The notes: generated by a model not told the origin, from the letters alone. A DNA stretch of 14,819 nucleotides from Candidatus Odinarchaeia archaeon (GCA_029856525.1 JAHQXC010000030.1:1-14819), one strand, 5' to 3'. Counted from the stretch's first letter, positions 10,268 through 13,195 are shown. Numbers and translations are program-made.

Positions 10268-11110
10268 TTAATCTACCTGGATGTCTAATCTTACATGCTC
10301 TTTACGCGGAGCGAATGATTTAATTCTCTTACACCCGAGTAATTTCACATCTGTTTCTGGTAGATCGGCGGCGATTAGAAACTCTTTTAAAAGGCTTTCA
10401 CATTGGTTTCTATAGTCACATAACCCTTCGTAATGTACTACGCCCGGTCTTCGCAAAATTTTTAGAGCTGATTTCACGTAATTTTTAGGCGTAGGCAGAA
10501 GCCCCATTATCACTCTATCAGCCTTGCAGTTTAACTGATTGCAAACCACGCCGGCATCTCCATGCACCGGTTCTATTACATGCTCTACTTTATTAAGTCT
10601 TATATTTTCTAGGAGATACCGGTAGGCTACAGGGTTAAGTTCAATCGCTATTATTTTTTTAGGCTTAGCGTGAACAGCTATATTTATTGAAAAATATCCT
10701 ATTCCGGCAAACATGTCTACGACAATCTCCCCCTCTTTTACAAATTCTGCTATTCTACGCCGCTCCGTTATGTTTCCTTTAGAGAACATTATATTCATTA
10801 CATCTAGTTTAAATATGCAGTTGTTTTCAAAGTGAACTGTTTCAGTACCCCCCTCGCCTTTTATAATCTCTAAATTAGGTTTTCTAAAATCACCGGTGAT
10901 GCCGCCTTTTTTAAGCAACACCATTCTAGTGTGAGGTATCAGCTTGATAAGCTCTTCAGCTATAATTTCACGGTACTGGTTGAGTTCAGATTTAAGCGTT
11001 ATTATCATGATATCCCCTATCTTCTGGTAGCCTCTAGGCAGTAGATTAATAATATCACGGGGGATCCGCTCTGCTAACCTCTCTTTTAAAATATTGAAAA
11101 TCCGGGTCAT
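10268..11110 (-). CDS. taw2: tRNA(Phe) 4-demethylwyosine(37) aminocarboxypropyl-transferase Taw2/TYW2 (Trm5/Met10-like class I SAM enzyme)
   Basis: Motifs MFSKGNITERRRIA, VVDMFAGIGYFS, IELNPVAY.YL.ENI.LNKV, ADRVIMG and VVHYE fit Taw2 better than Trm5, but a Trm5a-type paralogue cannot be fully excluded. Confidence 0.75.
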   Translation of the reverse strand: MTRIFNILKERLAERIPRDIINLLPRGYQKIGDIMIITLKSELNQYREIIAEELIKLIPHTRMVLLKKGGITGDFRKPNLEIIKGEGGTETVHFENNCIFKLDVMNIMFSKGNITERRRIAEFVKEGEIVVDMFAGIGYFSINIAVHAKPKKIIAIELNPVAYRYLLENIRLNKVEHVIEPVHGDAGVVCNQLNCKADRVIMGLLPTPKNYVKSALKILRRPGVVHYEGLCDYRNQCESLLKEFLIAADLPETDVKLLGCKRIKSFAPRKEHVRLDIQVD

Positions 11111-11163
11111 AGACTCTGAGCTCCAGCTCTCTGAAATCTATTGAACAAGTATAGAAGTTGAAT

Positions 11164-11441
11164 GGGCGCGTCATGTCCCCCGCCATTAACGCTTAGCATC
11201 ATAGACGGGGTTTTGCGCCCCCCTCAGCTAAGTTCTCTATGCCGGGGTTTCACTGACGCGTTGGGTTGATGTACCGCATCTGGGTTAACCCCGCCTCATC
11301 TACTAGGTGAACCACCTTAATCGGCTAAGGGCCTATCATTGCGTTTACTCAACCCTCAGCTCCAGTGTTGCCTTTCTCTTGCTCTAGGCTTCATATTTAC
11401 CTCCGCCAGCCCTCGAAGAAAGGCTAGTCTATCATCGCTAA
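11164..11441 (-). ncRNA. Candidate structured non-coding RNA of unassigned family (~280 nt)
   Basis: No ORF over ~35 aa on either strand. About 53% GC by hand count (148/280 over 11161-11440), against very AT-rich intergenic DNA elsewhere. Many helices close with G-U pairs on the minus strand but would be A-C mismatches on the plus strand. A TATA-like TTTAAAAA lies ~25 nt upstream. Confidence 0.62.
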
Positions 11442-11455
11442 ATCTAGTTTAACTT

Positions 11456-11471
11456 TTTTTAAATAAAAAAA
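11456..11471 (-). promoter_or_regulatory. Oligo-T terminator of pheST overlapping a TATA-like box for the downstream RNA
   Basis: The minus strand reads TTTTTTT (11471-11465), 14 nt after the pheT stop, then A-TTTAAAAA (11463-11456). Confidence 0.45.
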
Positions 11472-11485
11472 TTATGTTTCATCTT

Positions 11486-13195
11486 TTAGGCATTGGTATC
11501 CTGTTGCAGTTTGCTTGAATCCGGTTTAAGAGCCGCTTCTAAACTTGTTAAAGCGAATTCAGCTGCGCATACAGGGTATTCTATTTCAAAATTATTTAAA
11601 ACCTGAGGGTGTATTTCTCCAATCCATCCTATTTCCACACTATTACACGTTAATGCAGCCCCTCTCCCTTCTAGTATAAATGGTTTTTTAAAATAATTGT
11701 AAACGATATTTCTTAAGCCTAATTCTCTTATGAATGCTTCTGTTAACTCTTTTATCAGCGTGTAGTTCGCTGAGTCGTCCATTACTGCAAAAGCAACGTT
11801 TACCTCTCTTCTAGTCTTGGTTTCCAGGTTAGACTCGTCTATTTTAAGTACATCCCCTATCTCGAATATTCGCTGAGGTAGCTGTGCATGTCTGTTTATA
11901 CTGAACACTTTTAGTAAACTCGGTAGAATATTTATTCTAAAAATCGTGTATTCGCTGCTCACAGGGTTTAATAATTGAACATGCTCCTCTTCTAAGAGCA
12001 TTTTCCTAAAGTGGTCTTCTTCATTTGTAAGAGAGGAGGTTACAACCTCTAATAATTGTAATCCTACCAGTATTCTCTTTAATTGGGTTATAAGCTTATT
12101 TTTACTAGAGTAGGATCCTGTTGTAGGCGCGTGCCTGTACAGTGGTTTAATTTCATCGTATCCGTATCCTACAGCTAACTCTTCCACTAAATCTATTTCA
12201 TGAAGAATGTCGAATCTATATGGGGGAATGTATATTTTGAATTTTTCCTCGCTTTCAGATACTTTTTCAGCTTTAAATCTAACCCTGCTGAAACACTCCA
12301 CTATTTCTTTATCTGAGAGATTTAAACCGAGTATTCTAACAGCCTCCCTCTTGTTAAGCGTCATGATTTCAGGTTCAAGTGTGGGTGTAGTCAATGTTTT
12401 ATCCGGATATTTAACGTTAACAGTCTCCAATCTCGCACCCGAATCATAAAGAGCGGTGCTTAGAATGTTAAGCGCCATTAAAATATTCGACATACTGTAA
12501 CCTGTTATATCTAGAAATATGTTTTCAGTCTCCTCTGTTACCTGGGTTAACACACCGTTTATGATAGGTGGAAATGATAAAACTTTTCCCTCTCTGTCTA
12601 TTATTAAAGGATATCTGTCATATTTATTGACTAGGTGAGCGTATTCTACTCCTTTAGGATGTTTTTCAAGTATTTCTTTAAGATTCATTTCAACACGCTC
12701 ACCTAACGGTATGAATTTCACATCTTCCGGTCTAACACCTAAATATTTGAATGGAGGTGTGACCTTATCTAAGTCGTGTACCCCAATAGCTGCTTTAAAA
12801 CGGTCTCTTCCAACTAATCTATGCAGGTCTTCTTGGATTTTCATCAATCTCTGGATTTTCTTGTAATCTAAAACTACATTTCTAGCTATTCCACAGACTA
12901 TGAGAGGCCTTATCTCAGACACACTTTTATCGACAGTTAACGTCACCGACCCTTTCTCTATTTTAAACTCAGGTAGCCCTTTCTCTAACCCTAGTCTACC
13001 TTTAAGCTGTCTTACAACTCCCTCAATTGTACAGTAATCCGGTCTATTCGGATTATACTCTGCTTTTATAACACCGTTTTCCACGCTCTCCACTGAGATA
13101 GCTATTTGACTTAAATTTTTTTTCAAATCATCTATTGAAAGATTTAATCCTATTAAACGGTTTAACTCTTCGATTTCCAAGTCTATCGAGGGCAT
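11486..13195 (-). CDS. pheT: Phenylalanine--tRNA ligase beta subunit (archaeal type)
   Basis: Motifs NPNRPD, QEDLH..VGRDR.K.AIGVHD, LSFPPIING, PPYRFDILHEIDLVEE.A..YGY and IGEIHPQVL.NF. Confidence 0.97.
   Translation of the reverse strand: MPSIDLEIEELNRLIGLNLSIDDLKKNLSQIAISVESVENGVIKAEYNPNRPDYCTIEGVVRQLKGRLGLEKGLPEFKIEKGSVTLTVDKSVSEIRPLIVCGIARNVVLDYKKIQRLMKIQEDLHRLVGRDRFKAAIGVHDLDKVTPPFKYLGVRPEDVKFIPLGERVEMNLKEILEKHPKGVEYAHLVNKYDRYPLIIDREGKVLSFPPIINGVLTQVTEETENIFLDITGYSMSNILMALNILSTALYDSGARLETVNVKYPDKTLTTPTLEPEIMTLNKREAVRILGLNLSDKEIVECFSRVRFKAEKVSESEEKFKIYIPPYRFDILHEIDLVEELAVGYGYDEIKPLYRHAPTTGSYSSKNKLITQLKRILVGLQLLEVVTSSLTNEEDHFRKMLLEEEHVQLLNPVSSEYTIFRINILPSLLKVFSINRHAQLPQRIFEIGDVLKIDESNLETKTRREVNVAFAVMDDSANYTLIKELTEAFIRELGLRNIVYNYFKKPFILEGRGAALTCNSVEIGWIGEIHPQVLNNFEIEYPVCAAEFALTSLEAALKPDSSKLQQDTNA

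Follow-up and report, generated by a model that had tools for sequence, protein, structure and literature searches.

The small RNA (sRNA) HgcG, known as Pab40, Pf7, Pho40 and Afu4 and represented in Rfam by RF00064, is a triple-hairpin H/ACA guide of Euryarchaeota. Motif 1 of Pab40 modifies Pyrococcus abyssi pseudouridine (psi) 2588 (PMC2377435), and for motif 2 of Afu4, Pf7 and Pho40 the target is expected at the equivalent of P. abyssi position 2678 (Muller et al.). In Haloferax volcanii, the double stem-loop H/ACA RNA sR-h45 is responsible for psi2605 through stem-loop 1 and for psi1940/psi1942 through stem-loop 2, and its pocket for helix 69 holds four unpaired target bases (UNUN), of which both alternate uridines are modified (PMC7075261). 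Here we analysed a 14,819-nucleotide (nt) stretch of DNA from a Candidatus Odinarchaeia archaeon (GCA_029856525.1, JAHQXC010000030.1:1-14819; hereafter the window, with positions counted from its first letter), in which a GC-rich block on the minus strand, between pheT and a taw2-like methyltransferase gene, very probably is a stand-alone gene of ~270 nt for a three-module box H/ACA guide sRNA, which would be the Odinarchaeota counterpart of Pab40/Pf7/Afu4 (HgcG). The host assembly (G000) is a metagenome-assembled genome of 1.32 Mb in 127 contigs that is 93% complete.

A predicted triple H/ACA guide RNA in Odinarchaeota

The initial annotation had called the block unassigned, which is accurate at the gathering thresholds of Rfam, where the whole window gives no RNA match, but not below them. 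In a permissive cmscan of 11050-11550, RF00064 aligns over its full length to 11169-11482 on the minus strand with 43.2 bits and E = 1.2e-10 (E = 7.4e-11 genome-wide), and no other family comes close. Models of RNase P, MRP and the signal recognition particle (SRP) have no match in the same interval even at E <= 10, in agreement with the earlier remark that RNase P and SRP signatures are missing. Standard annotation misses the RNA because its score lies below the gathering threshold; by Rfam's operational rule it is a non-member of RF00064 and, as far as its sequence tells, a distant homologue instead, that is, a diverged homologue in a known class and not a new kind of RNA. Of the interpretations offered before, the multi-hairpin, L7Ae-binding guide RNA is the one retained here, and novelty, an RNase-P-like paralogue and a cis-regulatory leader are given up. 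Of 151 Asgard genomes sampled across the phylum, 14 have full-length RF00064 matches, all of them sub-threshold (19-52 bits), and none of the 151 reaches 77 bits, the curated gathering score of the family. The RF00064 seed thus appears too narrow to annotate the family outside Euryarchaeota. Literature linking Asgard archaea or Odinarchaeota to H/ACA guides was not found in a search whose coverage is incomplete, so that absence is not proven.

The conserved block, its modules and the two helices that clamp module 2 (P0 and P-1) are arranged as follows, with RNA position 1 at window 11438.

11168-11438, minus strand: entire conserved RNA block, 271 nt; 93-95% identity in congeners, divergence outside; ends approximate
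11427-11438, minus strand: 5' leader with the C-box-like word GCG-AUGAUAG; genus-conserved, with CAAUGAAGG there in the sister family
11366-11424, minus strand: module 1; lower stem 11417-11424 / 11370-11377; ACA 11366-11368
11410-11416 and 11378-11383, minus strand: module 1 pocket, 5' UCGAGG(G) and 3' (A)GCAAG; upper stem and K-loop at 11384-11409
11349-11365, minus strand: 5' strands of the clamp; P-1 CUGGAGC 11359-11365, P0 GGGUUGA 11349-11355
11270-11345, minus strand: module 2 core; lower stem AACGCA/UGCGGU 11340-11345 / 11273-11278; ACA 11270-11272
11330-11339 and 11279-11288, minus strand: module 2 pocket, 5' AUGAUAGGCC and 3' UUAACCCAGA
11323-11329 and 11289-11295, minus strand: module 2 upper stem CUUAGCC/GGCGGGG; kink-turn (K-turn) and capping hairpin at 11296-11322
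11253-11269, minus strand: 3' strands of the clamp; P0 UCAACCC 11263-11269, directly after ACA, and P-1 GCGUCAG 11253-11259
11174-11247, minus strand: module 3; lower stem 11239-11247 / 11177-11186; ACA 11174-11176
11233-11238 and 11187-11191, minus strand: module 3 pocket, 5' AGAGA(A) and 3' (C)GUUA
11227-11232 and 11192-11197, minus strand: module 3 upper stem CUUAGC/GCUAAG; K-turn and capping hairpin at 11198-11226
11168-11173, minus strand: 3' trailer UGACGC (D-box-like UGA plus CGC), where conservation stops; CCUGACCC in the sister family

From base to tip, all three hairpins comprise a lower stem, a pocket made of two strands, an upper stem and a K-turn or K-loop of the L7Ae type; an ACA box follows on the 3' side. 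In module 1 the lower stem, GCCUUUCU/AGAAAGGC, is a helix already drawn in the initial annotation and conserved; it is followed by the upper stem CU-GGC/GCC(U)AG and a K-loop (GGA...UGAA), and the 3' end reads A-ACA. Module 2 has a K-turn of the form CCGA ... GAU-GA-GG under the cap hairpin AGGUG/CACCU, and module 3 combines the lower stem CCCCGGCAU/AUGGCGGGG with a textbook C/D-type K-turn (CUGA on one strand, UAU-GA-U (AUGAUG) opposite). At the sequence level, the K-turn-like words pointed out earlier are genuine halves of these K-turns and K-loops, motifs defined by tandem sheared G.A pairs, and the top of each module is a predicted L7Ae site. Furthermore, the first guide base of the 3' arm and the first A of ACA lie exactly 14 nt apart in every module (RNA positions 57/71, 153/167 and 249/263), which is the spacing rule of archaeal H/ACA ribonucleoproteins (PMC2377435; PMC7075261); our criterion for the archaeal H/ACA class was an ACA (ANA) box 14-16 nt from the pocket top. 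The leader (GCG-AUGAUAG) and the trailer (ACA-UGA-CGC) contain a C-box/D-box-like pair that could, speculatively, form a fourth, terminal K-turn closing the whole RNA. Pairing between the two is weak (-4 to -7 kcal/mol).

Comparison with relatives supports this architecture. Three congeners (G001-G003) carry the RNA at 93-95% identity, and two members of the sister family carry a ~70% identical copy, again just upstream of the methyltransferase gene; in L005 and L006 the RNA is followed by a similar open reading frame (ORF) start. When hairpins were folded with their guide bases held open, the architecture of module 1 proved common to 15 sequences and that of module 3 to 13, with stem sequences that differ yet remain paired. 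The lower stems of module 1 among homologues read, for example, GCCUUUU, GGCUCCUC, GCUCCAUG, CCCGGCC and UCCCAC; the guide words CGAGG/GCAA (module 1) and GUUA (module 3) are constant. Between the two Odin-order families the upper stems change in a compensatory manner, from CUGGC to CUGACCC in module 1 and from CUUAGC/GCUAAG to CUCGGC/GCUGAG in module 3; compensatory changes are thus present in stems, as they are in P0. Scanning metagenome and genome contigs with a 19-nt conserved pattern returned only the four already-known Odin-order genomes, the remaining 59 loci being chance matches without similarity to the RNA. In G065 and G094 (L020, L025), the hairpin upstream of the helix 69 module is a near-perfect long stem (UGGCACGGCUC/GAGCCGUGCCA) with no obvious pocket, and this first hairpin differs from the module 1 seen elsewhere.

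Other pairings of the initial annotation did not survive this comparison. The long-range helix between 11441-27 and 11206-193 (13 base pairs, bp) has genuine complementarity (-14.7 kcal/mol), yet it is not part of the conserved fold. The 3' half of the helix falls on module 3, in the K-turn strand and upper stem, both of which covary with local partners of their own, and the sister family does not keep the pairing (-8.2 and -5.7 kcal/mol, in another pattern); the complementarity rests partly on near-palindromic AUGAU words. Similarly, the consensus fold recovers neither the CGGGGUU/AACCCCG pseudoknot nor the CCUUAG/UUAAGG hairpin, both of which compete with conserved stems of the modules.

G000 encodes a complete Cbf5 (domains DKCLD, TruB_N, TruB_C_2 and PUA), Gar1 and two L7Ae-family genes. 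If the modules act as established H/ACA biology leads us to expect, the K-turn or K-loop of each would bind L7Ae, Cbf5-Nop10-Gar1 would sit on each lower stem and ACA box, and the two strands of the internal loop would pair with 23S ribosomal RNA (rRNA) so as to flank a target U; Cbf5 would then convert this U to pseudouridine. Two points weigh against the assignment as a guide RNA of this family. The RF00064 score of 43.2 bits is under the curated gathering score of 77, and Nop10 was not found in the 93% complete G000 assembly. Nop10 is found in all three congeners (G001-G003) and in the sister-family genome G005, and its absence from G000 is most likely an assembly gap.

Predicted targets in 23S rRNA

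Targets were sought in the rRNA operon of G000 itself by scanning the large subunit (LSU) and small subunit (SSU) rRNAs in pocket geometry; significance was taken from 500 shuffled guides, and E. coli numbering from alignment to rrlH. The module 1 and module 3 pockets, as drawn from cmscan, had one base too many and gave no target, and redrawing the pocket top led to a match at U2604. Here UCGAGG and GCAAG of module 1 pair over 5+6 bp with CUUGC-U2604-A-CCUCGA of the LSU (E. coli 2496). This is the sole site of at least 11 bp for module 1 in the LSU and SSU, and its score is reached by 0 of 500 shuffles. The module 1 guides of G008, G085 and G111 match the same position on their own LSUs. We regard U2604 as a firm predicted target of module 1. 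By our reading it is also the position modified by Pab40 motif 1 (psi2588), given that the pocket in the RF00064 consensus (CGAGG / GCGAC) recognizes this CCUCG site too and that the two numberings are offset by 92 nt.

In module 2, the 3' arm AACCCAG pairs over 7 bp with CUGGGUU immediately 5' of U2694 in the LSU (E. coli 2586), and the 5' arm GGxC faces GACC; in the congener G001 (GGUC) the latter gives four Watson-Crick pairs, for 7+4 in total. U2694 is the top-scoring LSU site for the module 2 guides of both G000 and G001, and the G001 score is reached by 2 of 500 shuffles. The equivalent of P. abyssi 2678, expected for motif 2 of the family, is E. coli 2586 by the 92-nt offset seen for module 1. 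Several features count against this target. The 5' arm of G000 itself (GGCC) has a C.A mismatch and makes three Watson-Crick pairs (7+3), two guide bases (UU) are unpaired at the pocket top, and the 5' arm of the sister family does not fit the G000 site, with the 3' arm (AACCCA) kept; this last comparison was made with the G000 LSU, the LSU rRNA of the sister family (G004-G006) being unassembled. On balance we lean slightly towards U2694 (E. coli 2586) as the target of module 2. Other candidate sites for this module were rejected. A 6+6 bp match to helix 69 (UAACUC-U2033-C-UUAAGG), found in an unconstrained scan, draws its guide segments from the conserved upper stem, at a distance of 19 nt from ACA and of 3 bp from the K-turn. 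For E. coli 2555, to which the 5' arm would pair over 8 bp, there is no 3' arm within the pocket.

The pocket of module 3 is small, and both its arms are complementary to the 3' strand of helix 69 in the LSU, UAACUCUCU (UAAC-UCUCU). Within helix 69, E. coli 1915 (2025 in the G000 LSU) is the most likely target, and possibly 1917 (2027) too, in an atypical mode resembling UNUN; we prefer E. coli 1915 because homologous Asgard modules fit there and because sR-h45 of Haloferax provides a precedent for the UNUN mode. In Asgard family f4 (G008, G085), the homologous module 3 fits E. coli 1915 with 13 bp. In a by-eye reading of module 3 of G047, the 3' arm GUUAGU pairs over 6 bp flush with the U at E. 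coli 1915, and the 5' arm GAGAC pairs with GUCUC after three skipped bases; a flush-geometry scan of G047 put another site first. Placed in that register, the AGAG arm of the Odin module pairs with CUCU, and at E. coli 1920 the rRNA base and the guide base facing it change together (C-G in G047, G-C here).

With canonical geometry, the best site for module 3, at rank 1, is U2031 (UAAC-UC-UCUU, 4+4 bp; E. coli 1921), which would be the alternative target and which we rank below E. coli 1915. A canonical module 3 would imply a eukaryote-type helix 69 modification in an Asgard archaeon, at the position of yeast psi2264, which is a G in E. coli. Neither fit is free of difficulty. The assignment to E. 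coli 1915 requires five unpaired target bases, and the canonical fit at U2031 lacks significance by itself, being matched by 53 of 500 shuffles.

In the congener G002, the 23S rRNA (L009:3539-3568) has a 30-nt insertion directly after the helix 69 3' strand (after UCUCUUAA), which is mini-intron-like and absent in G000 and G001. Other Asgard LSU genes (L027, L028, L100 and L101) are 3.4-3.8 kb long and contain insertions, compared with 3.06 kb in G000; the insertions are probably introns or expansion segments. One insertion of G111 falls within helix 69 or beside it, and the LSU match of this genome is itself in two parts.

The module 2 clamp, genomic setting and alternative readings

Module 2 is the least regular part of the RNA. 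The helix P0 (GGGUUGA/UCAACCC), together with its CUGA/UCAG and CGCA/UGCG extensions, had been recognized in the initial annotation and is kept. P0 is part of the consensus fold and reads GGAGCCG/CGGCUCC and GAAGCCG/CGGCUUC in the sister family, five of its seven pairs being changed on both sides, and on these sequences P0 is a genuine covarying, lineage-specific helix. The clamp is a small structural novelty. The RF00064 consensus is without a P0-type helix, and cmscan placed the lower stem of the family's motif 2 on the outer P-1, skipping the inner core. We argue that the inner core is nevertheless the likely homologue of motif 2, because it combines the invariant UGCGG(U/C)ACA with the 14-nt spacing and an AACCC arm that is also found in the RF00064 consensus. 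Indeed, the longer word UGCGG(U/C)ACAUC is invariant in six sequences. Two further points tell against an active module 2: P0, by starting right after the ACA, confines that box to a 3x3 internal loop, and no active H/ACA unit with such a closing helix is known to us. P0 may act on module 2 as an inhibitor, a regulator or a plain scaffold.

The 3' strand of P0, UCAACCC (11263-11269), is also the 3' guide arm of motif 2 in other Asgard families (G008, G085 and G150). It is perfectly complementary to GGGUUGA at 2974-2980 of the G000 LSU, followed by UA (to 2982; E. coli 2836; locus L007, minus strand), a match that may be left over from an older guide or may be coincidental. An outer pocket for module 2, with UCAACCC as the 3' arm, P-1 as the lower stem and AAA as the box, was rejected as a working guide despite its 7-bp fit to 2974-2980. 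It lacks a 5' arm, its spacing to the box would be 19 nt, and the sister family has CGGCUCC in place of this strand.

The RNA block lies in a 375-nt gap between two genes of the same strand, behind a putative promoter.

11486-13195, minus strand: pheT, phenylalanyl-tRNA synthetase beta chain, upstream gene (Pfam tRNA_synthFbeta, B5, B3_4)
11456-11471, minus strand: A/T-rich TATA-like box, read from the sequence, ~25 nt upstream of the conserved RNA 5' end
10268-11110, minus strand: taw2-like Trm5/Tyw2-family methyltransferase, downstream gene (Pfam TRM5-TYW2_MTfase, TYW2_N_2)

A structured, GC-rich, non-coding block had been proposed at this place, and it is borne out: its GC content is 0.52-0.53 compared with ~0.38 in the surroundings, and the longest ORF inside it has 43 amino acids. 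The preference for the minus strand also holds, with a folding z of -3.96 against shuffled controls compared with -2.19 for the plus strand. The TATA-like box noted earlier is likewise present; its T-run and A-run are kept in all four genus members, and we infer that it is the promoter of the RNA gene.

The features of module 2 allow a reading in which activity is confined to modules 1 and 3 and the middle domain (11249-11365, 117 nt) is a structural or L7Ae-binding spacer or a decayed guide, with its ACA locked in a P-1/P0/P1 stem. P0 and P-1 do form a continuous irregular stem enclosing ACA, the 5' arm of module 2 is weak in G000 and without fit in the sister family, and the alignment of the motif-2 lower stem to P-1 in place of the inner stem is in keeping with an inactive domain. 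Nevertheless, UGCGG(U/C)ACA is invariant, modules 1 and 3 have the identical guide-to-ACA spacing, the AACCC 3' arm is conserved and recurs in the motif 2 consensus of RF00064, and the 7-bp fit falls on the site expected for family motif 2; moreover, pairing on the 3' side was found to matter most for activity in the study of sR-h45 (PMC7075261). We consider an inactive middle domain possible and doubtful. The opposite reading, in which the unusual features are functional, would have the clamped module 2 autoinhibited or switchable, or holding a nested second pocket, and a canonical module 3 selecting the eukaryote-type U of helix 69; this we judge unlikely.

A role outside H/ACA guidance receives far less credence. 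The block shares the strand of both neighbours, and its position beside the methyltransferase gene is kept in two families, as would suit a cis-regulatory 5' leader of the taw2/Trm5-like gene or an element in the 3' untranslated region of pheT. Either role is highly improbable, since the RNA has its own TATA-like box, conservation stops ~55 nt before the taw2 start, the pockets match rRNA and not the neighbouring mRNAs, and in other Asgard families the homologous RNA came to light through the covariance model, without regard to genomic neighbours. It is harder still to credit a composite RNA with a box C/D methylation guide as one component. The RNA does contain words resembling C and D boxes and is weakly similar to the C/D sRNAs sR53 and sR10 (E 0.09-0.2), but these matches are insignificant, the would-be C box in the module 2 reading is GAUUA, the sister family has CUGA and no C box at the 5' word, and the spacer lengths do not suit a C/D guide; every C/D-like word is explained as half of an H/ACA K-turn. 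The least credible reading is a diverged RNase P-like or other catalytic or structural RNA paralogue, with which size, GC content and faint sequence echoes are compatible. The silence of the RNase P, MRP and SRP models speaks against it, as does the lack of conservation of the long-range helix, and the three H/ACA modules, with their ACA boxes, K-turns and rRNA-complementary pockets, account for all conserved helices. The preferred reading thus remains a three-module H/ACA guide.

Comparison with known guide RNAs

Like Pab40, Pf7, Pho40 and Afu4, the Odinarchaeota RNA has three H/ACA motifs in tandem, and every motif has its own K-turn or K-loop and its own ACA box. The likeness extends to the predicted guides: the motif 1 pocket is of the CGAGG / GCxA type and aimed at the E. 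coli 2496 position, the 3' arm of motif 2 contains AACCC and is aimed at the E. coli 2586 region (with the weak 5' arm of the Odin module), and the 3' arm of motif 3 contains GUUA and is aimed at helix 69, the exact U differing between fits. In contrast to the Pab40 family, the host belongs to Odinarchaeota and not to Euryarchaeota, and module 2 is ~40 nt longer and enclosed by an extra covarying helix directly after its ACA. Compared with Pyrococcus or Asgard family f4, the 5' arm AGAGA of module 3 pairs further down the 3' strand of helix 69.

Compared by its description, sR-h45 shares the predicted targets of Odin modules 2 and 3, namely 2586 and helix 69, after conversion of the numbering: we take Haloferax psi2605 to be E. 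coli 2586 through the offset between H. marismortui and E. coli numbering, and psi1940/psi1942 in the helix 69 loop are, by the same conversion, presumably E. coli 1915/1917. Unlike the Odin RNA, it consists of two stem-loops joined by an H-box-like hinge and has no module for E. coli 2496. The equivalent of 2586 is a pseudouridine in Drosophila and mouse as well (Muller et al.).

In yeast, snR46 guides psi2865, snR191 psi2258/2260 and snR3 psi2264 (PMC5699541). These are eukaryotic two-hairpin H/ACA small nucleolar RNAs without K-turns, and their likeness to the Odin RNA lies in the targets alone. With Um2921 = Um2552 and Am2256 = A1913 as the offset, we take psi2865, psi2258/2260 and psi2264 to correspond to E. 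coli 2496, 1915/1917 and 1921, which equal the positions fitted by the Odin pockets.

Together, these comparisons suggest that Asgard archaea carry a conserved triple H/ACA guide known from Euryarchaeota, which would fill an annotation gap. The predicted targets (2496, 2586 and helix 69) are functional-centre positions, in the peptidyl-transferase centre and helix 69, that are modified in Pyrococcus and Haloferax; they support the idea of an ancient core set of guided pseudouridines and provide concrete Asgard rRNA sites for it.

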